Origin: Bacteroidia bacterium
GTDB taxonomy: Bacteria; Bacteroidota; Bacteroidia; SpSt-205
Length of the DNA: 64,000 nucleotides
Assembly (NCBI GenBank): GCA_026003215.1
Contig: BPGV01000001.1
Coordinates: 25,570 to 89,569 of the forward strand
Reading direction: 5' to 3'
The notes below the pieces were generated by a model that worked only from the letters and a program-made list of their open reading frames with translations, was not told the DNA's origin and made no database searches. Of the stretch, positions 5,777 through 54,678 are shown piece by piece. Numbering within the stretch: the stretch's first letter is position 1; every line of letters begins with the position of its first letter. The translations under genes and the position numbers were made by a program.

Positions 5777-7507
5777 ATGCGATACATAGCCTGGCTGATG
5801 GTATCGGGCTTGCTCTTGTGGGCGCAGCCGCCTAACGATAACCCCTGTGGGGCCATTACGCTCACGCCCAGTGCAGGCTGTACCTACGTAAATGGCAACC
5901 TTAATGGAGCTACCGCTACCCCAGGGATTCCCGCGCCTGGCTGTGCCAACTATCAAGGGGGAGATGTATGGTACGCTTTTCCTGTGCCTGTGGGGGGGCG
6001 GGTCATTATCCAGGTGAGTAGCAGCTATGATTTGGGGATGGCTATTTACACGGCTGCAACCTGTACGGGGCCCTTCACCCTCACCGAGTGCGACGATGAC
6101 GATGGCCCTGGCCTCAATCCCACCATCTGTCGCACTGGGGGTAGTAATACTGGTTGTACCGGCATCGATCCAGGGGTCGCCTGTACCTATAATGCAGCCC
6201 TAACGGCCGGCACCACCATATGGATCCGAATATGGCGATATAATAATGGTACGCCTGGCAATACGCCCTTCCAGATATGCGTGATAGATTGTGGGAGTGG
6301 GGGTGGTGGTGGCGGCAGTGGGTGTAATGCAGCAAACTATACCGCCTATTCCTGTCCCTGTCCTACGCCGGGTGGCGGGAGCTGGTGTGGTGGAGGCTGT
6401 ACCTCTGCGGGTATTACCACAGATGATGTATATGCGCCTGCATGGACTTCTCTCCCCTTCTCTTTTTACTTTGCCGGAAATACCTATAACCAAATCCTTA
6501 TCGGCGCAAATGGGCATGTAGTCTTCCCGCCCTCGGGAAAGACCGCCGGAGGTTACGATGGCTACAGCTGGGGCGGGTACACAAGCGATCTATACTCTAT
6601 CCAGTTTCAGTTGGATATAAATCCGGCCTTAGGCGGAACTATTTGTTATCGGACTATAGGCAGCGCTCCTAACCGCTGCTTGGTTGTGCAGTATTGTAAT
6701 GTGCCTTATTTTGGGAGTGCTTGTACGGGCTTGACTTTTACGGGTGAGCTGCGCCTGTGTGAGAATGGAAGCATTCAGATAAATATCGCCAACATGCCTG
6801 TATGTACCGGATGGAATGGCGGGGGCTGCTTTGTAGGAATTGTAGGAGGGTCAGGGGATATGTGGGCTATCCATAATGCCCAGCCTTGTCCAGCGCTGAC
6901 CAATACCTGTTATGCTTTTACGCCACCGCTGAGTTGTCAGGTATCTACGCCGCCGCTGGGGTGCCTGCCCCTGGCCGCGGTCATAGAGCGTTTTGAGGGG
7001 AGCCTCCGTCCCGAAGGGGTTCGCATAGAGTGGGATGTAGCTGAGGAGGAGGATATCCTCCGCTATCGCATAGAGCGCAGTGGAGACCTTCAGCGCTGGG
7101 AAAGCATAGGGGAGCTCCCTCCGCAAGGGAGCGGAAGCCACTACTTCCTCGTGGATGATGCCTATCCCCGGCAGTATAGCTCACTGTATTATCGCCTTAT
7201 TGTAGTAGAGCAGGTGGGCGGCGAGAAGGCATACGGCCCCATAGAAGTGGTTTTGACTGAAAAGCGGCCTATTCGGCCGGAGCGGTTTGAGCTGCGGGCT
7301 GGGGAGGCCCTACGGTTGCGCTTAGGTACGGGCGAGGAAGTGCGGGCGACCGTGTATGATGCCAGTGGTCGCCGCACATTTGAAGGGTACTTTTCTGGAC
7401 CCGGGGAGGCGGAGATACCCGCTGTGTTTTTCAGTCGGGGTTTTAACATCCTCCTGCTGGAGGTGATGGGGGGCGAGACGGCGGCTTATCGTATCCTGCA
7501 CTACTGA
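5777..7507 (+). CDS. Cysteine-rich secreted protein of 576 aa with a poly-Gly linker.
   Basis: Signal peptide MRYIAWLMVSGLLLWAQ. The N-terminal roughly 350 aa contains more than 30 Cys, separated by a CGSGGGGGGSGC linker. The C-terminal roughly 120 aa (RPERFELRAGEALRLRLG...AYRILHY) looks like a beta-sandwich sorting or adhesion domain. Confidence 0.65.
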   Translation: MRYIAWLMVSGLLLWAQPPNDNPCGAITLTPSAGCTYVNGNLNGATATPGIPAPGCANYQGGDVWYAFPVPVGGRVIIQVSSSYDLGMAIYTAATCTGPFTLTECDDDDGPGLNPTICRTGGSNTGCTGIDPGVACTYNAALTAGTTIWIRIWRYNNGTPGNTPFQICVIDCGSGGGGGGSGCNAANYTAYSCPCPTPGGGSWCGGGCTSAGITTDDVYAPAWTSLPFSFYFAGNTYNQILIGANGHVVFPPSGKTAGGYDGYSWGGYTSDLYSIQFQLDINPALGGTICYRTIGSAPNRCLVVQYCNVPYFGSACTGLTFTGELRLCENGSIQINIANMPVCTGWNGGGCFVGIVGGSGDMWAIHNAQPCPALTNTCYAFTPPLSCQVSTPPLGCLPLAAVIERFEGSLRPEGVRIEWDVAEEEDILRYRIERSGDLQRWESIGELPPQGSGSHYFLVDDAYPRQYSSLYYRLIVVEQVGGEKAYGPIEVVLTEKRPIRPERFELRAGEALRLRLGTGEEVRATVYDASGRRTFEGYFSGPGEAEIPAVFFSRGFNILLLEVMGGETAAYRILHY

Positions 7508-7525: not shown

Positions 7526-7565
7526 GGCGGGGGGATAGCTTCCCCCCGCCACTTTTATGTAGTTT
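7526..7565 (+). terminator. Intrinsic terminator: 10-bp stem ggcgggggga/tccccccgcc, 5-nt loop, then acTTTTatgtagTTTT.
   Basis: Perfect inverted repeat plus U-tract, 19 nt after the stop of the 5777-7507 gene. Confidence 0.6.
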
Positions 7566-7571
7566 TGGGGG

Positions 7572-8945
7572 ATGGCATCGCTTTTTGTATGGCTACGCCG
7601 GCTGCGTGCTGTTGTAGAGCGCTTCCGCATACACCCCGAAATGGATAGCCCAGAGCGTATCCTGGAGGCTATCAGCCGCGATGTGACCTTCCGTGGGATA
7701 AACCTTTGGGTGCTCATCACTGCCACCTTGGTCGCTTCCGTCGGCCTGAATGTCAACTCCACCGCTGTCATCATCGGCGCAATGCTCATCTCGCCTTTGA
7801 TGGGCCCTATCATCGGCGTGGGCGTGAGCTTGGCTATTTATGATATTGCGCTCTTCCGCAAATCTCTGCGTAACCTCGTCGTGGCGGTATTTTTCAGCTT
7901 GGTGGCTAGTTCATTGTACTTCCTCCTCACCCCCCTCAAAGAAGCGGGTAGCGAACTTATCGCGCGTACCAAGCCTACCTTTTGGGACGTACTTATCGCC
8001 TTCTTTGGTGGGCTGTCAGGGGTGATCGCCGCGTTAGGCCGAGAAAAAAAAACCAACATAATCGCAGGCGTAGCGATTGCTACGGCGCTTATGCCGCCGC
8101 TTTGCACGGCGGGATATGGGGTAGGTACCGGCCAGTGGAGTTTTTTCATAGGGGCTTTTTACCTTTTCCTCATAAATGCGGTCTTTATTAGCGCCTCAGC
8201 TTATCTGACTTTTCAAGTCATACGTTTCCCTAACCGAGAGTTTGTAGATAAGTCCTACCAGCAGCGGATTCGGCGGCTTTTGGCGGTAGTAGGCCTTCTT
8301 ACCCTTTTGCCCAGTGTGTATATCGCCTATACCGTCGTGCAAGAAGCCATCCAAGAAGCCCGTGTGCGGCAGTTTGTGGAAAAAGCTTTTGAGGTCTTTC
8401 CCCTCACCAGCGTAGTAGAATACAAAAAAATAAGTGAGGGCGATACCGTACGGCTTCGAGTGGTCTTGGTAGGAGAACCTTTGGCTGAAAAGGATATTCA
8501 ATATCTTGCCCATGAGCTACATACTTCTTATCGCCTCCCGAAGTATCGCCTGGAAGTGGTGCAAGGAATCCTACCCGAAAAGCCTGAGCCTTCTCACCTC
8601 TTAGAGCTTGCCGAACGGAGTCACCAACAGGTGCGCACGCTCAGTGATAGTGTGTATAAACTCCAGCGGGCCTTAGAAGCTTGTCGTAAAGAAAAGGAAA
8701 CGCAAACTCAAGAACTGCTTCAAATAGCTCGAGAGGCACGCAGCCTTTTTCCTGAAATCCAGCGTTTAGGCTTCCAAAAAATGAGACTTTCGGACGGTAA
8801 GTCTTATAGCGGCGATACCGTATATGCGGTGTGGGTTGAAGTACCTTCTAAGAGAAAGTTTGCCGAGGGGGAGCGACTCCAAAAATGGCTCAGCGAGCGG
8901 CTCGGTGGAAAAAAAGTACAAGTATTCCTCCAGCCTACGCGATAA
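7572..8945 (+). CDS. DUF389-family (TIGR00341-like) integral membrane protein.
   Basis: Multi-TM N-terminal half with the conserved LISPLMGPIIG and ALMPPLCTAGYG segments of DUF389, followed by a coiled-coil-like soluble C-terminal half. Confidence 0.65.
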   Translation: MASLFVWLRRLRAVVERFRIHPEMDSPERILEAISRDVTFRGINLWVLITATLVASVGLNVNSTAVIIGAMLISPLMGPIIGVGVSLAIYDIALFRKSLRNLVVAVFFSLVASSLYFLLTPLKEAGSELIARTKPTFWDVLIAFFGGLSGVIAALGREKKTNIIAGVAIATALMPPLCTAGYGVGTGQWSFFIGAFYLFLINAVFISASAYLTFQVIRFPNREFVDKSYQQRIRRLLAVVGLLTLLPSVYIAYTVVQEAIQEARVRQFVEKAFEVFPLTSVVEYKKISEGDTVRLRVVLVGEPLAEKDIQYLAHELHTSYRLPKYRLEVVQGILPEKPEPSHLLELAERSHQQVRTLSDSVYKLQRALEACRKEKETQTQELLQIAREARSLFPEIQRLGFQKMRLSDGKSYSGDTVYAVWVEVPSKRKFAEGERLQKWLSERLGGKKVQVFLQPTR

Positions 8946-14626: not shown

Positions 14627-14723
14627 GACCACTCGGCCCGCTCTTTCTACGACTTAGCCTGTGTAGGCAACCGTTCAAGCTTGAACTTCGGATTTAAGAA
14701 AAGGAGGTTTGTACCTTTGGTAC

Positions 14724-17678
14724 ATGACAGGCAAGATGCGCATAGGGCTGCTTGTACTCGGTGTAAGCCTCCTGACGGCCCAGACTATCTTTTACTCGCA
14801 GGACTTCAATAGCGGGGTGCCGGCCGACTGGAGCCTCAATACCAGCGATATGGGCAGTGTCACAAACGGCTACAACTACTGGACCGTCGGCGCCGATTAT
14901 AATACAAGCGTGTCTCCTAATCCTTTTGAGGTTCCGTGTTCATTCTTGGGGTGTGTGCCAGCGACAGTTGTCCCTGTTATTCCCAACCAGCCGGCGGCTA
15001 TCCCCGGCGCGCCTAATTCTCCTTTTCTGCATATTGCTTATGACGGGAGTTATAGCAGTAGTGCGGGCTGTATGGCTCCAAATGTCGTTACTACTTCTTT
15101 TCTCGCAGCGGATGGGGTATGTGCCTTAGCCCAAAACTACTTTGCTCGGCTGAATACCCCTATCCCTATTCCTGCGGGCACAGCGCCGGTCAAACTCAGC
15201 TTTTTCTGGCTATGCAAAGGCGGCCCTGCCTGGTACGGGGAAGTGCTGTATGGTACCGGACCCACCGTGCCCACCACTTGGTTTAGCTTGACCTCCAGCG
15301 TGACGGGAACCAACGTCTTGAACAACCATGATGGTCAGTGGTATGCCGACACGATTACGCTGCCAATTACGCGGCCGGCGCAGCTCTGGATAGCCTTCCG
15401 CTTCGTAAATAATAATGGGACCACGGGGGGAGATCCGCCCTTAGCGGTGGATATGATTCGGGTCTTTGATGTCCCGGTGGCTACGCCTACCCTTACCTTA
15501 GACAATGCCACCCCTAACCCAGTGTGTGCGGGCAATACCCTAACTGTCTCCTACACAGCGCAAAACTTCCCCACTGGCACCACCTACACTGCTCAGCTCC
15601 TCAATGCCAGCAATACGGTAGTAGCGTCCGCCTCGGGTTCCAGTCCTATTGCCCTGACTATCCCGGCCACCTTGCCCAGTGGTACCTACACCCTCCGAGT
15701 GCAAGCGAATACTACCCCCCCGACCAATAGCAATACCGTCCCTATCACCGTTGTGAATGTACAATCCCTCTCCTGCTCTGCAAACCCCAATCCCGCTCAG
15801 GTGGGTGCCGCCGTCTCCTTATCTCTCAACGGAACCAATCTCCCCAGCGGGCCTTTTAATATCCAGATGAACCCCGGCGATGGCAGCCCTCCCCAATCTC
15901 AAGCCAACGTGGCTGCCTTGCCCGTGACCTTCAGCCACACCTACACCGCCGCAGGGACCTATACCGTGACCTTTACGATTACGCATCCCGCTTCGGGGTG
16001 TAGTGGCACCTGTACGGTACCGGTGACCGTACAGCCCCCCACCACGAATACGATTGATTTGGTGAGTGTGACCCCGTCGCCTGTCTGTGCAGGTAATACT
16101 ATCACGGTGACCTTCACGCCCTCAGGCACCTATAACTCGGGCAATCTCTTTCGGGTGCAGCTTTCGGATGCGACGGGTTCCTTTGCTGCACCCCAAAATA
16201 TCGGGGTCGGGGCCACCAGCCCTATCACAGCCACTATCCCTCCTACGACGCCTTCAGGCACCTATGGGGTTCGTGTGGTGAGTACCTCGCCGGCAGTGGT
16301 GAGCGATACCCTGAGTGTGGATGTTGTTAATCTCAGTGGTCTTACGTGTTCGTATAACCCTACACCGGCGTTGGTGGGTACAGCTACTACGCTCACGATA
16401 GGGGGGAGTGGCTTACCCAGCGGGCCTTTTGATGTCCGTGTGGATGTGGATGGGGATGCTACGGCGGACTATACGCAAAATGGGGTGGCGCTTCCGTATA
16501 GCTTTACCCATACCTATACGGCAGGGGGAACCTACAACGTGACTTTTACGGTGACGCATCCTGCTTCCGGCTGCACGGGCACCTGTAATATGACGGTGCA
16601 GGTACAAGGGCAAGGCCTCTCCGCTACCAATCTGACCCCGGATACCCTCTGTGCGGGCGAATCTTTCACGGTGGATTATACCAGTGTAGGGATAACCTTT
16701 GCAGCGGGCAATACTTTTACGGTGGAGGCACGAGATGGGAGCGGGAACTTGGTGTTTAGCTGTCCTACGGCGAGTACAGCGACGAGTGGTACCTTAAGCT
16801 GTACGGTACCGGCGGGCACGCCTCCCGGCAGCTATACCGTGCAGGTGGTGAGTAGCAATCCTGCTTACACCAGTGGCAGTTTGAGCGTAGGGGTGAGTGC
16901 GCCGCCGGTGGCGGACTTTGCCCCTGATGCTAACCTGCGCTTCTGCGTAGGGACCCCTATCCGTTTTACCAACCGTTCTCAGAATGCCCTCTCTGTGCAG
17001 TGGGACTTTGGCGATGGCACCACGAGTACCAGCCTCAATCCTACCCACACCTATACCCAGCCGGGCACTTACACGGTGACGCTGACGGCCTCGGTGAGTC
17101 CGACTTGTACAGACCAAATCCAGCGGACGGTAGAGATACTTCCGCTGCCGCAAGCTTCCTTTACGGTGCAGCCACCTACGCTGACACTGCCCGAGCAAAC
17201 CACCGTCACCCTCACCAATACTTCTACGGGAGCCGCTACCTATCAGTGGGACTTCGGAAACGGCCAAACCAGCACTGCCCCGAATCCTACCGCTACCTAT
17301 AACCAAGAAGGGGACTACACTATTACCCTCACGGCTATTTCCGCCGACGGGTGTAGAGATACGGCGCAGTACCTCCTCGTCGTGCGCTACGCGCAATCCT
17401 TAGCTATCCCGAACGCCTTTACCCCTAATAGCGATGGCATCAACGATCGATTTGTGATACGCTATGTAGGGATGGAACGCTTGCAGGTGCGGCTCTATGA
17501 CCGCTGGGGAAATGAAATCTTTTCTCAGCAGCAGGCCGCGCCTGCGGGCACCATAGAGTGGGATGGCACGCGTAATGGCCAGCCCGCACCCGAAGGGGTG
17601 TATACCGGCCTGGTGGAGGGGCGCACGATAGACGGAAAAGAGGTTCGCAAGGGCTTTACGGTGACCCTCCTGCGCTGA
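14724..17678 (+). CDS. Large secreted T9SS type-B substrate with tandem Ig-like/PKD repeats and a gliding-motility-associated C-terminal domain (CHU_C).
   Basis: Signal peptide MTGKMRIGLLVLGVSLLTAQ. There are three roughly 180-aa divergent repeats, each ending in a PKD-like motif (SFSHTYTAAGTYTVTFTITHPASGCSGTC; WDFGDGTTSTSLNPTHTYTQPGTYTVTLTA; YQWDFGNGQTSTAPNPTATYNQEGDYTITLTA). The C-terminus IPNAFTPNSDGINDRFVIRYVGMERLQVRLYDRWGNEIF...GKEVRKGFTVTLLR is a T9SS type-B sorting domain. Confidence 0.85.
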   Translation: MTGKMRIGLLVLGVSLLTAQTIFYSQDFNSGVPADWSLNTSDMGSVTNGYNYWTVGADYNTSVSPNPFEVPCSFLGCVPATVVPVIPNQPAAIPGAPNSPFLHIAYDGSYSSSAGCMAPNVVTTSFLAADGVCALAQNYFARLNTPIPIPAGTAPVKLSFFWLCKGGPAWYGEVLYGTGPTVPTTWFSLTSSVTGTNVLNNHDGQWYADTITLPITRPAQLWIAFRFVNNNGTTGGDPPLAVDMIRVFDVPVATPTLTLDNATPNPVCAGNTLTVSYTAQNFPTGTTYTAQLLNASNTVVASASGSSPIALTIPATLPSGTYTLRVQANTTPPTNSNTVPITVVNVQSLSCSANPNPAQVGAAVSLSLNGTNLPSGPFNIQMNPGDGSPPQSQANVAALPVTFSHTYTAAGTYTVTFTITHPASGCSGTCTVPVTVQPPTTNTIDLVSVTPSPVCAGNTITVTFTPSGTYNSGNLFRVQLSDATGSFAAPQNIGVGATSPITATIPPTTPSGTYGVRVVSTSPAVVSDTLSVDVVNLSGLTCSYNPTPALVGTATTLTIGGSGLPSGPFDVRVDVDGDATADYTQNGVALPYSFTHTYTAGGTYNVTFTVTHPASGCTGTCNMTVQVQGQGLSATNLTPDTLCAGESFTVDYTSVGITFAAGNTFTVEARDGSGNLVFSCPTASTATSGTLSCTVPAGTPPGSYTVQVVSSNPAYTSGSLSVGVSAPPVADFAPDANLRFCVGTPIRFTNRSQNALSVQWDFGDGTTSTSLNPTHTYTQPGTYTVTLTASVSPTCTDQIQRTVEILPLPQASFTVQPPTLTLPEQTTVTLTNTSTGAATYQWDFGNGQTSTAPNPTATYNQEGDYTITLTAISADGCRDTAQYLLVVRYAQSLAIPNAFTPNSDGINDRFVIRYVGMERLQVRLYDRWGNEIFSQQQAAPAGTIEWDGTRNGQPAPEGVYTGLVEGRTIDGKEVRKGFTVTLLR

Positions 17679-17697
17679 GGGTAGTGCATAGCTTCCG

Positions 17698-17733
17698 GCG
17701 GGGCCCTTAATCGGGTCCCGCTTTGTTTCTTTG
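17698..17733 (+). terminator. Intrinsic terminator: 9-bp stem (one G·U pair) gcggggccc/gggtcccgc, loop ttaatc, tail cTTTgTTTcTTTg.
   Basis: Seen directly, 20 nt after the stop of the T9SS cargo gene. The U-tract runs into the start region of the next gene. Confidence 0.55.
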
Positions 17734-22851: not shown

Positions 22852-23252
22852 CTCCGCCCTTAGAGCGACTGGTCCGCGGGAAAGGGCCTTTGGCAGTCTT
22901 CCTCCCTGCTTCGGAACATAACCCGGAAACCTACGCCCTTTTAGAGAAGATACTGGCTGCGGTGAAACTTTCTCCCCAGCAAGCTTCGGTATGGGGGGTA
23001 CATTCGCCCGTCAGCCTATATAGGCTTGAGCTTTTTTCGGAGCGGCTCTTGTGGGTGTTCGGTGAAGTGGGCTTGTCTCTTCAAATAGGGACTTACCTTT
23101 TGGAGGGGGGGCAAGCGCGTCCCGTGCAAGTACGCGGCTGGCCCGGGCAGCAAGTACTTTTTCAGCTGCCTTCTCTCTCGCAAATGCTGACCGATGAAGC
23201 GCGCAAACGCGAGGCCTGGCGATGGCTCAAACCCCTTTCTTCACCCTCATAG
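22812..23252 (+). CDS. Hypothetical protein of 146 aa that overlaps both neighbours.
   Basis: A clean ORF in the 370-nt space between lhgO and tgt. It has a weak resemblance to the DNA polymerase III psi (HolD)-like pattern (LAVFLPASEHNPETYALLEKILAAVKLSPQQA). Call is low confidence. Confidence 0.4.
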   Translation: MESLLPSLYHWPLTPPLERLVRGKGPLAVFLPASEHNPETYALLEKILAAVKLSPQQASVWGVHSPVSLYRLELFSERLLWVFGEVGLSLQIGTYLLEGGQARPVQVRGWPGQQVLFQLPSLSQMLTDEARKREAWRWLKPLSSPS

Positions 23253-24334
23253 CCGAAGAAGGCGCTGCCCGAGCGGGTATTCTCCATACCGCCCACGGCG
23301 AGGTGCCCACGCCCGTCTTCATGCCCGTGGCTACGTATGGTGCCCTCCGGGCTTTTCCCCACCATCTCCTTCAAGAAGCCCCCATTCTCCTCTCCAATAC
23401 TTACCACCTATACCTTCGGCCGGGTACAAGCTTACTGGAGGAGGCCGGCGGACTCCATCGCTTCATGGGCTGGGAAAAACCCATTCTCACCGACAGTGGC
23501 GGCTACCAAGTGTTTAGCCTGGCTGCGCATCGGACCCTCTCTGAGGAAGGTGTCCGCTTCAAGTCCCACATAGATGGCTCCGCGCACCTCCTTACGCCGG
23601 AGCTCGCCGTCTCTATTCAACGCAGTATTGGTTCGGATATCCAGATGGTCTTAGATGTATGTCCGCCCTATCCGGCCTCACCAGCAGAGCTGAGCGAAGC
23701 TTTGCGGCTGACCCATGCGTGGGCAGGACGAGCCCGCCGGGCCTTCGTGGAAAGGCCGGAAGCCTATGGCTATCCGATTGCCCAGTTTGGGATTGTGCAA
23801 GGGGGGGTAGATCCGACGCTTCGTCAGGAGAGCTGGGCGGCTTTGGCCCCGTTGGCCTTTGAAGGATGGGCCATAGGCGGCCTAGCCGTAGGCGAACCCT
23901 TCGAGCTGCGCAAACCTATCCTCCACCTTATGGGCCAGCTCCTTCCCTCAGAAAAGCCCCGCTACGTGATGGGCCTGGGTACCCCACAGGACATCCTGGA
24001 AGCTATCGCCGCAGGCATGGATATGATGGACTGCGTCATCCCCACCCGCAATGCTCGGCACGGCTTGATTTATAGCTGGGAGGGCATCCGTAATATCAAA
24101 AATGCCCCTTATAAAAACGACTTTACCCCTCTGCCGCCCTGGGGCTATACCCGGGCATACCTACATCATCTTTTTCGGGTAGAAGATCCGCTGGCTTTAG
24201 TGATTGCCACAGCGGCGAACTTGCATTTCTTTTTAGAGCTGGTGCGGGTGGCGCGGGAACGGATTGTAGCGGGAGAGTTTCGGGTGTGGCGGGAGGCTGT
24301 GGAGGGGCAGTTGATGCGGCGGTGGTCGGGGTAA
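23222..24334 (+). CDS. tgt: Queuine tRNA-ribosyltransferase (tRNA-guanine transglycosylase).
   Basis: Canonical Tgt blocks: MPVATYGALRA, LTDSGGYQVFSL, IQMVLDVCPPY, GIVQGG and YVMGLGTPQDILEAIAAGMDMMDCVIPTRNARHG. Confidence 0.95.
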   Translation: MAQTPFFTLIAEEGAARAGILHTAHGEVPTPVFMPVATYGALRAFPHHLLQEAPILLSNTYHLYLRPGTSLLEEAGGLHRFMGWEKPILTDSGGYQVFSLAAHRTLSEEGVRFKSHIDGSAHLLTPELAVSIQRSIGSDIQMVLDVCPPYPASPAELSEALRLTHAWAGRARRAFVERPEAYGYPIAQFGIVQGGVDPTLRQESWAALAPLAFEGWAIGGLAVGEPFELRKPILHLMGQLLPSEKPRYVMGLGTPQDILEAIAAGMDMMDCVIPTRNARHGLIYSWEGIRNIKNAPYKNDFTPLPPWGYTRAYLHHLFRVEDPLALVIATAANLHFFLELVRVARERIVAGEFRVWREAVEGQLMRRWSG

Positions 24335-24407
24335 GGGGCATGGCCGCCGCCTTTGGCGGCGGCCATGCCCCCCACTGGGCGGCCAGCGCCAGAGGCGCTG
24401 GCCGCCC
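24335..24407 (+). promoter_or_regulatory. Two tandem perfect GC-rich hairpins immediately after the tgt stop. Hairpin 1 is a 17-bp stem at 24335-24371 with loop ttt. Hairpin 2 is a 13-14-bp stem at 24377-24407 with a 3-5-nt loop. A weak U-tract cacccCTTTTacc follows.
   Basis: Perfect inverted repeats are read directly: ggggcatggccgccgcc/ggcggcggccatgcccc and gggcggccagcgc/gcgctggccgccc. This is probably a transcription terminator or protein-binding element. It accounts for the spurious MAAAMPPTGRPAP... ORF start. Confidence 0.6.
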
Positions 24408-24430
24408 ACCCCTTTTACCTATCTTTGCCC

Positions 24431-25699
24431 ATGCGCCTTCTCCTCCTCTCCCTACTTTCTCTGGGCGCCTTCGCCCAAACCTGGTACGAAACCGACCTCC
24501 CCAAGGCCTTCGCCAAAGCTAAAAAGCAAAAAAAGCCCCTCTGGATTATGTTCTCTGCCACTTGGTGCGGCCCCTGCAAACTGGTAGAAGCTAAGGTCCT
24601 CTCCAGCCCTACCTTCCAAGAAGCCGTTACAAAAGACTTCATCCCCCTCCATGTGTATGTCCAAAGCGGGGAAGAAGATACCCCCGGCGCAGACACTCTG
24701 GCGAAAAGGATAGGCGTGGCAGCTTATCCCACATTTGTGTGCATGGAGGCTAATGGATCTGTCTTTTATCGGCAAGAGGGGATTTCTTCGGAGGTAGTCA
24801 GGGGTACCCCCGATGACGCAGTGAAAGAGTTCTTACAGCAGCTCAGCTCTGCCAAAGAAGCTCGGACCACCCTTCCTCAGCTGCGCGCACGCTTCCAAAA
24901 AGGAGATAGATCTTTACCTTTTTTGCGAGAATATCTGACCTTGCTTATAAAAGTCAAGCAAAAGACCGAAATGGATACGGTTTTTTCTGCTTATCTCCGA
25001 GCAGCGGGTTCTACCCGTGCAGCCTGGCTCCCAGAACCCGGATTTTTTCTCAATCTGCTTTATCTGGTGATGAGCTTCCCTGAATATACAACTTATGTGA
25101 TGAGCATAGCTGATACCCTTCGGCAGGAGCTGGATAGCGCTTCTTTTTTGTCGTTATATCAGGCAGTGGTAGCGGTAGATTTTGAAGAGAAACAGGCAAA
25201 AATCAAAGATTGGAAGGCTTTGGTGGAGACCACGGAAGTGTACATCCGACGGCATAGGGAGCGTTTCCCCTTTGTGGAAAAGCTTATTTTACAACATGTA
25301 GCTGAGTGGGGCATAGGCAGCAAGGACCCCGAGACACGAGAGCAGGCCGCAGCCCTCATGATACGAGCGGTAGCGGTAAACTGGCCTTTAGAAATCCCGG
25401 GGGCGGAGGAACGGGAAGACTTTGCGCAAAAGCTCAATGAAGCGGCCTGGCGTTTCTATGAGAAAGTAGAAAGTCCCGATAAGCTTTGGACAGCGATAAG
25501 CTGGGCTAAAATGGCCGTAGCCCTCCATCCCTCCGCTTGGGAAATCTGGGATACCCTCGGCGCCCTTTACTACAAGCTTAAGCAAAAGAGACACGCCATA
25601 GAAGCGCTTTCCAAAGCCATTGAACTGGCACAAAAGCAAGGCGAAGAAGCCGAAGAGACAAAAGCCCTTCTTGAAAAAGCCAAAGCGCTCTCGGATTAA
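24431..25699 (+). CDS. Secreted thioredoxin-fold (WCGPC) protein with a C-terminal TPR-like helical domain.
   Basis: Signal peptide [16 protein letters not shown]. The thioredoxin active site is [13 protein letters not shown]. The alpha-helical C-terminus ends with TPR-like repeats. Confidence 0.7.
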
Positions 25700-29006: not shown

Positions 29007-29043
29007 TGCGGCAAAGATAGCATAGACCTCCTACCTTTGGGAT

Positions 29044-30369
29044 ATGCGTGCCCTATCCTTGGGATGGCCTCTGCTCCTCCTCGCCCAGAAGGTCTCCCTG
29101 CAAGCCGGCCCAATGTTAGGCTATGCCCAGCTCCGCGAGGTAGCGATTTGGCTGCAAACCACGGCTCCCGCGCGGGTAGAAATAGAATACGCCGATACCG
29201 CTTCTCCCGGTGTGAAGTACAAAACCCTGCCACAACATACTGAAGCAGAAAAAGCTTATACGGCGGTTTTCCGCATAGGGCCTTTGACGCCGGGGCGAGT
29301 CTATGGCTATACCGTGTATTTGAATGGCAAACCCGCACAGCTTCCATATTCCACTTACTTTCGTACACTGCCGCAGTGGCGTTGGCGTACGGCCCCTCCG
29401 GACTTCCGGTTTGTCATGGGTAGCTGTGCTTACATAAACGACTCCTCCTACGATAGACCCGGCCAACCCTATGGGGGAGAATACGAGATTTTCCGCGCTA
29501 TCACGGCCCAGAAACCCGACTTTATGCTTTGGCTGGGCGATAATGTCTACCTCCGAGAAGCCGACTGGAATAGCCGAAGCGGCATCCTCTACCGTTACAC
29601 GCATACGCGTTCTCTCCCTGAGCTCCAGCCGCTCCTGGCCTTGTGTCCGCACTATGCGATATGGGATGACCACGACTTTGGGCCTAATGACGCCGATAGA
29701 GGCTTCTGGGCCAGAAACGTTACGCGGGAGGCTTTTACGCTCTTTTGGGCTAACCCCTCTTATGGGGTTGCCAGTGCACCGGAGGGGATTACGACCTTCT
29801 TTGAGTGGGGGGATGCGGACTTTTTCTTATTAGACAATCGCACCTACCGAGCTCCCAATAAGCGTACCACAGGCGACCGTTCCTTCCTCGGCACCGCTCA
29901 ACTGGAATGGCTTATAGACGCGCTCAAGTCCAGTCGCGCCACTTTCAAGTTTGTCGCCTGCGGCAGTCAAATCCTCAACCCCTCCCCCGGCTTCGAAAAC
30001 TTTATCAACTATGCTGCCGAACGGGAGACCCTCCTCAAACGCATAGAACAAGAAAATATATGGGGGGTTATATTCCTCACGGGCGATAGGCACTTTTCGG
30101 AAATATCGGTGCTCACCTTGCCAAATGGCCAAAAAGTGTATGACATTACTTCGTCTCCCCTGACGGCATCGCCTTTTCGGGAGGCACCCCAGCGCGACGC
30201 CAATCCTCTCCGGGTAGAAGGCACCCTTACGCCGGAACGAAACTTCCTCCTCCTCAGCGTCAGCGGTCCCGAAAAAGACCGCCAGCTTACCGTGAGTGCT
30301 TTCAACAGCCGTGGAGAGAAGCTCTGGGAACGCACTATTTCCGCTCGGGAGCTACGGGGGAAAAAATGA
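29044..30369 (+). CDS. phoD: Alkaline phosphatase D-like metallophosphoesterase (PhoD family).
   Basis: N-terminal PhoD_N-like domain and the metallophosphatase motifs LWLGDNVY, AIWDDHDFGPND and GDRHFSEI. Signal-like N-terminus. Confidence 0.8.
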   Translation: MRALSLGWPLLLLAQKVSLQAGPMLGYAQLREVAIWLQTTAPARVEIEYADTASPGVKYKTLPQHTEAEKAYTAVFRIGPLTPGRVYGYTVYLNGKPAQLPYSTYFRTLPQWRWRTAPPDFRFVMGSCAYINDSSYDRPGQPYGGEYEIFRAITAQKPDFMLWLGDNVYLREADWNSRSGILYRYTHTRSLPELQPLLALCPHYAIWDDHDFGPNDADRGFWARNVTREAFTLFWANPSYGVASAPEGITTFFEWGDADFFLLDNRTYRAPNKRTTGDRSFLGTAQLEWLIDALKSSRATFKFVACGSQILNPSPGFENFINYAAERETLLKRIEQENIWGVIFLTGDRHFSEISVLTLPNGQKVYDITSSPLTASPFREAPQRDANPLRVEGTLTPERNFLLLSVSGPEKDRQLTVSAFNSRGEKLWERTISARELRGKK

Positions 30370-44775: not shown

Positions 44776-44810
44776 ATCTCGGCAAAGATACGGAAAAATA
44801 CCTTTGCCGA

Positions 44811-45767
44811 ATGCGGGTAGTGTGGGTAGCAGATGCCGGCGCCACTAAGACGGAGTGGGCTATGCTGGATACGGACCGCTATAAAAAATTTCCTCATATG
44901 GGATACCGTTTGTCCTCCATTGACCCCCATTTTCGGCCCTACCTTATAAGTGAGAGAGAAGGGCTCAACGCAGAAGTAGAAGGATGGGAAGCCGCTCGGC
45001 GAAAGCTTGAGGCAGCTTTTCAAGCGCTAAGGGAGAATAAGTGGCCTGTACCTACTGAGTTGTATTACTATGGTCCGGCACTTCATGCCGACGAAAGCGG
45101 CCGCCGCATGAAAGCGCTACTCTCTTCCTTGACAGGTCCTACTACCCGCGTAGCCGTGTATCATGACCTTTTAGGTGCGGCGCGAGCGGCATGGGGAGCC
45201 CATGAGGGGATAGTGTGTATCTTGGGCACGGGGTCTAACTGTGCCTATTGGGACGGCTTCAAAATAACTCGGCAAGCTGGGGGGCATGGTTATCTCCTCG
45301 GCGATGAGGGGAGCGGCGCCGACTTAGGGAAGCACTTCCTGAGTGCTTGGCTACATGGCGAGGTGCCCTCCGACCTCATAAAAGCCTTTAAAGAGCAGAA
45401 CCCCCTTTCTTGGCCCATAGAGAGCCTGGCTCCGCTTACCTTGCGCAACTTTGTGTATCAGGCACCCAACAAGTCCGCAATCCTGGGGCGGTTTGCGCTG
45501 TTTTTACACCAGCATAAAGACCATCCGTGGGTAGCGGCGTTGGTTCGCCATCGTTTTGCGGCTTTTATTGAGCGCACGTGGGGACGCTGGGCCGACCTTC
45601 CTAAAAGAAAAGTGCGTTACATCGGCGGCGTAGCCCGAGCATTTGACGCTATATTGAAAGAAGTCACCGAAGCCTACGGCGGCCAGTGGGAAGGTAGAGT
45701 GGAGTCGGTGGTCGAGGCGCTTTTGGAGTATCATTGGCTCTTTCCGTCCAGAGAAGACCATGAGTGA
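44811..45767 (+). CDS. BadF/BadG/BcrA/BcrD-type ATPase / N-acetylglucosamine kinase-like protein.
   Basis: ADAGATKTEW... (phosphate-1), ILGTGSNCAYWDG and GYLLGDEGSGADLG are ASKHA-fold motifs. Confidence 0.75.
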   Translation: MRVVWVADAGATKTEWAMLDTDRYKKFPHMGYRLSSIDPHFRPYLISEREGLNAEVEGWEAARRKLEAAFQALRENKWPVPTELYYYGPALHADESGRRMKALLSSLTGPTTRVAVYHDLLGAARAAWGAHEGIVCILGTGSNCAYWDGFKITRQAGGHGYLLGDEGSGADLGKHFLSAWLHGEVPSDLIKAFKEQNPLSWPIESLAPLTLRNFVYQAPNKSAILGRFALFLHQHKDHPWVAALVRHRFAAFIERTWGRWADLPKRKVRYIGGVARAFDAILKEVTEAYGGQWEGRVESVVEALLEYHWLFPSREDHE

Positions 45768-52794: not shown

Positions 52795-52836
52795 GCTTTT
52801 CGGGGGAGGGCCGACTTTCTGTGGTATCTTTGTGGT

Positions 52837-54678
52837 ATGCAGCAGGTGGGGCGGGTTCCCCTCATAGAAGGCCAGTGGGCCCTTCGCCGAGAGCTTGTCC
52901 GCAGCACGCGGTGGGGGGGATTCGCCATGACTACCCTGTGGGGCTGCCCCGCCCGTAAGTATCACGCTTGGCTCTCCCTCTGGAAAGGCTTTGAACGCTG
53001 GGAAATCCTCCCCCAAATCCAAGAAGAACTCCTCCTCAAAGAGGGCCATTACCTCCTGACTACGCAGCACTTCCACGGCAAGCTCGCTTGGGAAGGCTTC
53101 CGTCACTTACAAGCTTTCCAAGCCAGCGCTGCGTGGGTGTGGGACTATCAAATAGGCGACCTGCGCATACAGAAGCTTTTTTACCTCTCACCCGATTCGC
53201 CTTTTTGGTTTTTTCGGTATCGTTTTTCGGGGCCGGTGCTTTTTCGGTGGATACCGCTCTGGGCGGTGCGGCCGTGGCATACTTTGCGTACTGAGCCGCT
53301 GGAAGTGCGCCGTCAAGGACAGATTCTCACCTTCTCCGCCGGCCTAAGCCTCTCCTTTCGGGCGGATCCAGCTCCTCGTTTCGTGCCATGGTCGTACCCA
53401 TACGAGGGGGTATATTATCCCGAGGAAGCGGCGCGGGGCTATCCCGCGACAGAAACCCTTTACCCCTCCGAATGTTGGGAATGGCGCCTCCATGTGCCCG
53501 GCGAGATTGTGATAGCCTTTTCCCTTGAGGAGACTCCGCGCATCCCTCTTAGCCTTCCGCAGGGTAAGGTCCCTTCTACCTTGTACGAAGCCTTAGACCA
53601 GGCCGCCGAAAACTTCTTCCTCCAAGATAGGGAGGGCGAGTATATCCTTGCCGGACATCCTTGGTTTGGGGTCTGGGGCCGGGATGCCTTTATTAGCTTG
53701 CCGGGGCTCACTTTGGCTCGGGGAGAGGTAGAACGTTTCCACCAAATCCAAGAAACAGCCCTGCGGTATCTCTCACCTGTGGGGCAGCTCCCCACCATTT
53801 TCCCGGACCAATACCTGGCCGAAGACACAGGATTATGGTGGGTGTGGTCGCTCTTGCAGGCTTGGCGTATGGGGCTCCCTGCCCAAGAACTCTGGCAGCG
53901 CTACGGCGAAGCCCTGCAAGCGGTGCTGGTAGGCTACTTACAACGATTGGCGGGATCCGATGGGCTCTTGTATGTCTCGGGGGAGGTGCCCCCTTCGTGG
54001 ATGGATGCTGTGGTGGAGGGTAAGCCGGCTGTCCCCCGCCAAGGCGCCCTCGTAGAACTCAACGCTTTGTGGTACGCTGCCCTGCGGTTTATCGCAGAGA
54101 TAGCGCCCCAAGAGGGGGTTCGCTGGCGCTGGGACCTCCTGGCTCGGCAGGTGCTCCAAGCCTTCAAGCCTACCTTCTGGGAAAAAGCCCGTGGCTACTT
54201 AGCCGACTGGCGCAGCACCCACGCCATAAGCTGGCAAATACGTCCCAACCAACTCTTTGCGGCTGCCCTTCCGTATCGCCCCATCAGTGAAAAAATCGCT
54301 GAACTTATCGTAGAAACCGTAGAAAAACACCTCCTTACGCCGCGGGGCCTTCGTACGCTATCGCCGGCAGACCCTGCTTATCAAGGACGATATGAAGGCC
54401 CGCCTGAGGCCCGTGACAGAGCCTACCATAACGGTATCGTATGGCCGTGGCTCATAGGCGCTTATGCCGAGGCAAAAATCGCTATCTGGGGCTCCTCCAC
54501 TAAGCCGGCCCTCCAAAAGCTCCTCCAAAGCTTTGAAGAAGGGCTCTATACCTATGGGTGGGGCATGGTAGCGGAGATTTACGACGGGGATGCGCCGCAC
54601 CTCCCGCGCGGCGCGCCCGCCCAAGCTTGGAGCATCGCCGAACTCCTACGAACCCACACCTTGCTACAGCGTCTATGA
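52837..54678 (+). CDS. Glycogen debranching enzyme, archaeal/bacterial GDE type (amylo-alpha-1,6-glucosidase).
   Basis: N-terminal GGFAMTTLWGCPARKYHAWL and a C-terminal (alpha/alpha)6 domain (GHPWFGVWGRDAFISLPG...PRQGALVELNALWYAAL...NGIVWPWLIGAY). Confidence 0.8.
   Translation: MQQVGRVPLIEGQWALRRELVRSTRWGGFAMTTLWGCPARKYHAWLSLWKGFERWEILPQIQEELLLKEGHYLLTTQHFHGKLAWEGFRHLQAFQASAAWVWDYQIGDLRIQKLFYLSPDSPFWFFRYRFSGPVLFRWIPLWAVRPWHTLRTEPLEVRRQGQILTFSAGLSLSFRADPAPRFVPWSYPYEGVYYPEEAARGYPATETLYPSECWEWRLHVPGEIVIAFSLEETPRIPLSLPQGKVPSTLYEALDQAAENFFLQDREGEYILAGHPWFGVWGRDAFISLPGLTLARGEVERFHQIQETALRYLSPVGQLPTIFPDQYLAEDTGLWWVWSLLQAWRMGLPAQELWQRYGEALQAVLVGYLQRLAGSDGLLYVSGEVPPSWMDAVVEGKPAVPRQGALVELNALWYAALRFIAEIAPQEGVRWRWDLLARQVLQAFKPTFWEKARGYLADWRSTHAISWQIRPNQLFAAALPYRPISEKIAELIVETVEKHLLTPRGLRTLSPADPAYQGRYEGPPEARDRAYHNGIVWPWLIGAYAEAKIAIWGSSTKPALQKLLQSFEEGLYTYGWGMVAEIYDGDAPHLPRGAPAQAWSIAELLRTHTLLQRL

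Follow-up and report, generated by a model that had tools for sequence, protein, structure and literature searches.

Between the tRNA-guanine transglycosylase gene tgt and the thioredoxin-like gene downstream of it, the window (the whole stretch of DNA analysed, 64,000 nt, of 55% G+C) carries two adjacent, perfect, GC-rich palindromes, designated H1 and H2. We lean towards regarding them as a REP/BIME-like palindrome pair that would act as a terminator, an insulator and a stabiliser of the mRNA 3' end. An extragenic GC-rich palindrome at the boundary of a transcription unit is a known sort of element, not a new kind. H1 (24335–24371, plus strand, 37 nt, intergenic) reads GGGGCATGGCCGCCGCC-TTT-GGCGGCGGCCATGCCCC, with a stem of 17 bp, all 17 of 17 pairs being Watson-Crick, and a TTT loop; it begins 0 nt after the tgt TAA. 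On its 3' side lies CCAC, the 4-nt spacer to H2, with no U-tract. H2 (24376–24408, 33 nt, also intergenic, with its best match to the family described below on the minus strand) reads TGGGCGGCCAGCGCC-AGA-GGCGCTGGCCGCCCA, the loop being AGA on the plus strand, and starts 41 nt past the tgt stop codon. Both hairpins were found where the preliminary description had located them, directly after the tgt TAA, except that H2 is one pair longer: with T24376 and A24408 added to 24377–24407, its stem comprises 15 perfect pairs. Downstream of H2, CCCC precedes TTTT (T-run 24413–24416) within the spacer CCCCTTTTACC (24409–24419, plus strand). This T-run is separated from the stem by 4 nt and would make a weak U-tract at best, as had been noted earlier; to judge from its sequence, it also fits the T-rich stretch that is common just upstream of the -7 boxes of the window and may be part of the promoter.

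The RNA fold of the region 24320–24440, a check suggested in the preliminary description, gave -91 kcal/mol (z = -8.5), and none of 200 shuffled sequences was equally stable; the fold of the minus strand in the same region gave -92.5 kcal/mol. Taken individually, H1 and H2 have energies of -41.4 and -35.3 kcal/mol at 37 °C. At 70 °C the predicted values are -24.1 kcal/mol for H1 and about -20 kcal/mol for H2, so that both stay stable, whereas other hairpins of the window reach about -8 to -16 kcal/mol at 60–80 °C (-11 to -16 kcal/mol at 70 °C for the hairpins at other unit ends). In an exhaustive scan of the window for perfect stems, no hairpin matched H1 and H2 in length, and those next in rank had 11 and 10 bp. 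The chance expectation for perfect stems of at least 15 bp with loops of 3–8 nt is about 4e-4 per 64 kb at the composition of the window, which is a rough estimate and not the output of a program.

For comparison with unrelated DNA, we used a control set of about 590 kb, made up of the 80 loci listed from a scan of genome contigs with the pattern GGGGCATGGCCGCCGCCN{2,8}GGCGG, which matched 84 stretches. As a search for relatives this pattern was too unspecific: the 80 listed loci were all unrelated, came mostly from GC-rich taxa, included no palindromic match and did not include the focal genome. In these GC-rich loci (591 kb) there are 14 perfect hairpins of at least 15 bp, or about 1 per 40 kb. 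Long perfect hairpins are thus not exotic in general, and the earlier statement that the stems are far beyond what a simple terminator needs was too strong. The remark that nothing similar is repeated in the window held, as neither the H1 nor the H2 arms have another copy there at up to 3 mismatches. No Rfam family was assigned, either to the region at E-values up to 10 or to the whole window at gathering scores, and the sub-threshold matches were to generic hairpins only (miRNA precursors and Pseudomonas P17). We found no tRNA or tmRNA genes, and no copy of H1 or H2 in viral contigs.

The palindromes fill most of the boundary between two transcription units. The upstream gene, tgt (23222–24334, plus strand, 370 aa, TAA at 24332–24334), was identified by Pfam PF01702 and by homologues named Tgt. 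It is the last of four co-directional genes, overlapping or tightly spaced, which encode Cofac_haem_bdg, DAO, a hypothetical protein and Tgt. The downstream gene, here called trx (24431–25699, plus strand), encodes a thioredoxin-like/TPR protein of 422 aa with a signal peptide and has its true start at ATG 24431. In the NCBI annotation it is a hypothetical protein of "MAG: Bacteroidia bacterium" with the locus tag KatS3mg025_0053; from the nature of the KatS3mg series, we take the source to be a hot-spring organism. Gene callers are split between a 422-aa and a 444-aa form of trx, the latter, by its length, beginning near 24365; the longest open reading frame (448 aa) starts with TTG 24353, inside H1. 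Since homologues of 423–435 aa cover 97–100% of the 422-aa protein from ATG 24431, the 444-aa and 448-aa starts are spurious, in line with the preliminary description, which had attributed a false N-terminal extension to the palindromes. The supposed extension also contains a promoter element, the -7 box TATCTTTG (24420–24427, plus strand), which matches the Bacteroidota sigma-A sequence TAnnTTTG and ends 3 nt before ATG 24431.

In Flavobacterium psychrophilum, the TAnnTTTG box spans positions -12 to -5 relative to the start of transcription (PMC9723704). On this spacing, transcription of trx is predicted to start at or next to the A of its ATG, and the trx mRNA is predicted from sequence to be leaderless. 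The arrangement is frequent in the window: 20 of the 49 TAnnTTTG boxes are followed at a distance of 3–5 nt by the start of an ORF of at least 80 aa, where 1.6 would be expected, and the spacings peak sharply at 4. Relatives share this arrangement of box and start, also in front of their trx homologues (L007, L010 and L095). A -33 TTTG element is absent from the trx promoter, and the -33 position falls in the right arm of H2; in F. johnsoniae, the -33 motif was likewise not found (PMC7366714). The gap between tgt and trx, 96 nt long, consists of 74 nt of hairpins and 22 nt that include the promoter box, which begins 12 nt past H2. This gap separates two transcription units. No regulator gene is adjacent to H1 and H2, nor do genes converge there. 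The stop codon of purL overlaps that of trx, and antisense read-through from purL could at most reach H1 and H2.

Related palindromes were found at three other gene ends, two in a relative with a TGT 74–75% identical (L106) and one in L095, one of two distant loci that were the sole returns of a metagenome-contig scan with the trx protein and that offered no strain variants. The first L106 hairpin, hp1 (GGGGCGCGCCAGCGCC-TTC-GGCGCTGGCGCGCCCC), is located 1 nt after a TGA and 22 nt before TAACTTTG-N6-ATG of serS. The second, hp2 (GTTTTGGGCGGCAGCGCC-TGC-GGCGCTGCCGCCCAAAAC), lies 20 nt after a stop codon and is followed by ATTTTCCCC. The 17-bp L095 hairpin (GGTGGGGCGGCGGCGCC-TTC-GGCGCCGCCGCCCCACC) lies 111 nt after the trx homologue of that locus. 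All three have perfect stems of 16–18 bp and 3-nt loops and occupy non-orthologous gene ends, the neighbours being serS, a haem-binding-cofactor operon and an epimerase gene; A-runs follow the L095 hairpin and hp1. The family thus rests on five copies at four loci in three species, with two adjacent copies in the 64-kb window and two in 21 kb of L106. The window yielded no further member, nor did about 65 kb of sequence from five additional relatives.

The kinship of H2 with these hairpins is evident at several levels. H2, hp1 and hp2 have the apex CAGCGCC-NNN-GGCGCTG in common, and the hp2 arm is the H2 arm minus one C. Three independent loci within roughly 150 kb of sequence from the lineage contain the 14-base pattern CAGCGCCNNNGGCGCTG, which is absent from the 590 kb of control DNA. 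When the apical 13 nt were compared with the loop as the anchor, all six pairs among H2, hp1, hp2 and L095 showed 9–12 of 13 identities (9–10 for H2 against the others), and the shared stem positions include the same A-T pair. By comparison, of the 276 pairs formed by 24 long perfect hairpins of unrelated genomes, 4 reached 9 of 13, one of them being a within-genome repeat. The 5' flank AGGGGT is common to H2 (on the minus strand), L095 and hp2. A covariance model, R2, built from the three members outside the window only (hp1, hp2 and L095), gave H2 a score of 35.3 bits on the minus strand, with an E-value of 4e-7. Judged on its sequence, H2 is certainly a member of a palindrome family of this lineage. 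H1 was scored by R2 at 27.3 bits on the plus strand, the best match in the control DNA (590 kb, GC-rich) having 20.1 bits; its arm shows 6–8 of 13 identities to the family, which is not above chance for a sequence of G and C only. H1 is an element of the same style and probably belongs to the family, but is not demonstrably a homologue. Across the five copies, every one of the 75 stem cells is Watson-Crick; 9 of the 15 pairs have changed on both sides, and one-sided changes, which would leave a G-U pair, number zero. The stem sequence is conserved across members, while the loops vary. The total lack of G-U pairs suggests a constraint at the DNA level or a recent origin rather than selection purely at the RNA level.

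At the orthologous site, relatives lack the pair. In L108 (TGT 79% identical), the tgt-trx junction is kept with a 197-nt spacer that has no long hairpin, and in L105 (79%) and in L106 and L109 (74–75%) other genes follow tgt, with no such hairpin. Conservation of the H1/H2 pair at this site is therefore limited to the species and possibly a sister species with a 92% identical TGT. Synteny is uninformative for most trx homologues, which share about 50% identity and stand among different genes. The trx homologues of relatives keep the promoter without a palindrome. In L109, the site orthologous to hp2 of L106 carries a different hairpin of 12 bp with a G-U pair; at this site a hairpin is kept and its sequence differs.

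These properties resemble those of REP and BIME elements in several respects. REPs, known from Proteobacteria and other phyla, are stem-loop palindromes of 20–40 nt associated with a RAYT gene (an IS200/IS605-type Y1 transposase); they number tens to hundreds per genome, and in BIMEs the copies cluster in alternating orientation. The palindromes are short (33–39 nt here), GC-rich and extragenic, and are located just after stop codons at the ends of units. They form an adjacent pair whose second copy, H2, matches best in the opposite orientation, an assignment that depends on a few flank bases of near-perfect palindromes. Related copies occur at non-orthologous sites (H2 with L106 and with L095, both other species), their presence varies among close relatives, and the family may be mobile. 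The roles proposed for REP elements (PMC3733652, PMC2817692), namely stabilisation of mRNA 3' ends, termination and insulation, are the same as those proposed here. Differences are also apparent. One end of a REP element bears an unpaired tag, GTAG or CGTC (PMC3733652). Neither tag is present here, the flanks being GTAA (H1), GTGA (hp1), ATAG (hp2), CTGA (L095) and CACT or AAAAGGGGT (H2). Moreover, the stems are perfect here and imperfect in REPs, and the host is an uncultured hot-spring Bacteroidia. The preliminary description had mentioned an insulating or REP-like structure among its options. The context fits an insulator, and the related palindromes at non-orthologous sites in two other species support the REP-like option, a support that comes from relatives only; elsewhere in the window there is nothing similar.

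The alternative that survives best, which we regard as possible but clearly the less probable account, is that H1 and H2 are plain tandem intrinsic terminators that arose in place, their likeness to the hairpins of relatives being convergence in a thermophile that needs GC-rich stems, with no dispersed family. Their position is exactly that expected of a terminator, no second copy exists in 64 kb, the similarity of H1 is at chance level, and GC hairpins follow other genes of the window as well. Three of these are located after stop codons and before promoter boxes of the TAnnTTTG type: a 12-bp hairpin at 637–664, with TACCTTTG directly 3' of it; a 10-bp hairpin at 7526–7550, followed by ACTTTTATG TAGTTTTG gggg ATG; and a 10-bp hairpin with two G-U pairs at 17697–17722, followed by TTTGTTTCTTTG. 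Canonical terminators with 10-bp stems and T-rich tails directly 3', one of them with G-U pairs, are therefore present in the window, and the organism has ordinary terminator-like hairpins, than which H1 and H2 are much stronger (15–17 bp against 10–12 bp for the other gene-end GC hairpins). The L109 site, where function is apparently conserved and the sequence has turned over, would also suit independent origins. Set against this are the 9–12 of 13 matches and the common A-T pair of H2, hp1, hp2 and L095, a level that control hairpins rarely reach, the AGGGGT flank of three of them, and the R2 score of H2, 15 bits above all control hairpins. Most members lack U-tracts, and perfect pairing without G-U would be unusual if selection acted only at the RNA level. 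Kinship at non-orthologous loci, patchiness, the arrangement in a pair and strict Watson-Crick symmetry together lead us to favour a REP/BIME-like family over independent terminators.

The site resembles described tandem terminators: GC-rich stem-loops lie 0–80 nt past a stop codon at an operon end, and hairpins less than 15 nt apart are counted as a "cluster" (PMC8355165). At H1 and H2, the stable GC-rich stem-loop and the location after the last gene of a unit are both present, and an immediate U-tract is not. They differ from intrinsic terminators in that H1 has no U-tract, H2 has four U residues set 4 nt off, and the stems are purely Watson-Crick on both strands. Prediction of terminators had been proposed in the preliminary description; a consensus terminator scan called no site at H1 or H2. 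With H1 lacking a U-tract, the TTTT of H2 distant and perhaps belonging to the promoter, and A-runs at L095 and hp1, the family is not one of canonical intrinsic terminators. The earlier suggestion of a strong or bidirectional terminator was thus borne out in part: the context, an operon end followed by a separate promoter, fits a terminator, whereas bidirectionality found no support, with no proper U-tract on either strand. A dedicated bidirectional terminator was rejected, as no genes converge there and the minus strand has no U-tract.

Two further kinds of hairpin were considered for comparison. I-shaped terminators, which lack the U-tract, are said to have been proposed for high-GC bacteria such as mycobacteria, by Unniraman et al. 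in 2001 and Mitra et al. in 2009, and their function is still debated. H1 and H2 share with them the long stable hairpin without a U-trail downstream of a gene, but elements of the H1/H2 type share sequence across loci and species, which is not expected of independently evolved I-shaped terminators. The uptake sequences of Neisseria (DUS) and Haemophilus (USS) form inverted pairs that double as terminators. Here too there is a repeated short sequence, an inverted pair and a terminator-like hairpin after a gene; single H1 and H2 arms, however, show no excess in the window, where 9 matches with up to 3 mismatches compare with an expectation of 6.2, and an uptake signal of this kind was rejected. 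Alternative pairing as in a riboswitch or attenuator was also rejected, as H1 and H2 share just an 8-nt box (GGCGGCCA/TGGCCGCC), far weaker than the 17- and 15-bp stems.

If H1 and H2 are a REP/BIME-like pair with the roles proposed above, the transcript of the tgt operon would fold into two very stable hairpins, stable even at 70 °C, which would stop or strongly pause RNA polymerase and bar 3'-to-5' exonucleases. The 96-nt gap would then suffice to close the tgt transcription unit, and read-through would be kept from the promoter of the putatively leaderless trx. Double hairpins at up to 80 nt from stop codons are common termination units, often without poly-U (PMC8355165), and in E. coli the ribosome represses terminators that lie a few bp past a stop codon (PMC4824070). 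A ribosome terminating at the abutting stop codon would hold the 5' arm of H1 open, while H2, 41 nt on, would lie outside the ribosome footprint and could serve as a fail-safe. With H1 subject to this hold and H2 free of it, the tandem layout would have a rationale.

A more specific version of the family reading, which we put forward only tentatively and consider rather unlikely, is that a dedicated lineage-specific system, such as a transposase-like or stem-binding protein, spreads or maintains the palindromes as U-tract-independent signals for 3'-end formation, termination and insulation. The conserved stems with free loops, the strict Watson-Crick pairing and the shared AGGGGT flank point in this direction.

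Slightly less probable still, in our view, is that the main role of the palindromes lies in translational or mRNA-decay control of tgt, with termination secondary. A very stable hairpin at the stop codon would hinder the terminating ribosome and lower tgt expression, an effect that Liang, Rudd and Deutscher reportedly described in 2015 for REPs of E. coli located less than about 15 nt from stop codons; we know of no test of this effect in Bacteroidota. The spacing of H1 (0 nt past TAA) and of hp1 (1 nt past TGA) would suit such a role, as would the interference between ribosome and hairpin known for terminators near a stop codon (PMC4824070). The other members, however, lie 20, 41 and 111 nt past stop codons, so abutment is not a trait of the family, and hairpins are efficiently unwound by ribosomes.

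We also doubt that the palindromes are primarily protein-binding sites. Sites for a dimeric regulator had been among the interpretations of the preliminary description; they could form an operator that overlaps the -33 region of the trx promoter, or the palindromes could be bound by gyrase or a nucleoid protein, as is reported of REP/BIME elements. H2 does occupy the -33 position, 12 nt upstream of the -7 box, the pairing is symmetric on both strands with no G-U, and stems are conserved where loops are variable. Yet elements of 33–37 bp, of nearly pure G+C and with three unpaired central bases, are unlike known operators, related copies stand beside unrelated genes (serS, the haem-binding-cofactor operon and the epimerase gene), no regulator gene is adjacent, and relatives keep the trx promoter without the palindrome. 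The regulator-site proposal gained no positive evidence.

The locus is difficult for short-read assembly. Inverted repeats and GGC motifs trigger Illumina errors and assembly gaps (PMC3141275). The tgt-trx locus is present in several independent assemblies with 99.2–100% identity. H1 and H2 are unchanged in three of them (L002, L003 and L004, strains 99.6–100% identical), and L100 carries unchanged the portion of H2 that its contig reaches. Other contigs end here: L005 in poly-G after H1, L006 between H1 and H2, L104 (a variant with a 98% identical TGT) 1 nt past TAA, and L103, the 92% sister species, in poly-G right after TAG, the sole GTAG reading preceding the poly-G run; L099 and L100 start inside H2. 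L001 has a 58-nt pseudo-duplication of H2 and its tail, many A/T-to-G/C differences, and outer arms that differ by two double changes, each perfectly compensatory. We rejected L001 as natural strain variation, the differences being mostly from A/T to G/C and beside poly-C or poly-G, at a place where sister assemblies break. The same systematic error read from both sides of a palindrome would also look compensatory, and the L001 arms stay unexplained. Apparent strain variation at this locus is not to be trusted, as short-read assemblies repeatedly break or become garbled there. Despite these breaks and poly-G runs in six contigs, the garbled L001 and the known error-proneness of such sequence, the idea that sequencing or assembly made the hairpins is effectively refuted, and we give it almost no credence, because the hairpin sequence is identical in the window and in independent assemblies (L002–L004 in full, L100 for its part of H2), from which we conclude that the hairpins are real.

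For annotation, the palindromes mark the boundary of a transcription unit and explain the wrong 444-aa calls of the trx gene. The lineage appears far more reliant on leaderless mRNAs than the Bacteroidota studied so far, and this predicted layout, a finding in passing, is the more unusual one. If a dedicated system does maintain the palindromes, its signals might matter where the promoters of leaderless genes adjoin the preceding gene. The elements described here are putatively the first sighting of a family of REP-like perfect GC palindromes in an uncultured hot-spring lineage of Bacteroidia, and, should a census of the whole genome confirm the family, it would offer a way to study the insulation of transcription units in a compact genome of a thermophile.

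The two perfect GC-rich hairpins that lie between tgt and the thioredoxin-like/TPR gene (trx-like), H1 (24335-24371) and H2 (24376-24408), are a repeated assembly breakpoint: in six independent assemblies a contig ends (L005, L006, L103 and L104) or begins (L099 and L100) exactly at one of them. Two of the six contigs carry poly-G runs at the break, and one of the six belongs to a sister species whose tgt product is 92% identical to the focal protein, where the break directly follows the TAG stop codon of the gene. In L001, a JGI assembly, the counterpart of 24376-24408 is found at 6157-6246 and contains a pseudo-duplication of 58 nt comprising H2 and its downstream tail. Most of the changes replace A/T by G/C. 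In the outer arms there are two double substitutions, both perfectly compensatory (GGGCGGGCCGCGCC / GGCGCGGCCCGCCC). L099, from a sister sample, contains a third garbled version of the site. The variants in L001 and L099 may reflect real hypervariability of the site; probably, however, they result from a sequence-specific Illumina error at the inverted repeat.

Three further GC-rich hairpins were found at gene ends in the window, with stems of 10-12 bp, shorter than those of H1 and H2, located 1-20 nt past stop codons. Those at 637-664 and 7526-7550 are followed by the Bacteroidota sigma-A -7 promoter box TAnnTTTG (664-671 and 7560-7567, respectively). The third, at 17697-17722, with two G-U pairs in its stem and a canonical T-rich tail, precedes TTTGTTTCTTTG and then an ATG at 17729. 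The intergenic regions at these three sites show a compact stop-hairpin-promoter-start arrangement. Among the relatives, L109 has a hairpin of 12 bp including one G-U pair (GGGGCGATGGCC-tagtcag-GGCTATCGCCCC, 7411-7441), preceded by an A-run. It occupies the site, flanked by the TPR gene and the Cofac_haem_bdg operon, that is orthologous to that of hp2, one of the two H2-related perfect palindromes of L106, from which it differs in sequence; what is conserved at this site is the hairpin, not its sequence. A within-genome repeated palindromic hairpin was also observed in an unrelated genome of the control set, the Halodesulfovibrio MAG L070, where a perfect hairpin, (AA)AGGCCCCTGCCGGA-aat-..., is present in two copies, 1 kb apart (823-853 and 1817-1851).

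Downstream, trx-like (+) and purL (-) are convergent, with a 4-nt overlap of their stop codons in the ORF list (25696-25699), which leaves no room for a terminator between them. Each transcript should therefore enter the other gene as antisense, and read-through from purL would reach H2 and then H1 from the minus side.

Across the whole window, 20 of the 49 TAnnTTTG boxes lie 3-5 nt upstream of the start codon of a long ORF, against 1.6 expected, and within this range the spacing is exactly 4 nt in most cases (box and start at 7560-7574, 14712-14726, 24420-24433, 29032-29046, 44799-44813 and 52825-52839, for example). The same layout is present in relatives at 50-79% protein identity, such as L007 (2990), L009 (336), L010 (2989), L095 (848) and L105 (2304, minus strand); it is absent from the distant relative L096. 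Published values for leaderless mRNAs in Bacteroidota are 5.5% in F. psychrophilum and about 3.7% in B. thetaiotaomicron (UTR under 10 nt). In the present organism, the placement of the box 3-5 nt before start codons predicts leaderless mRNAs for a large share of the genes.
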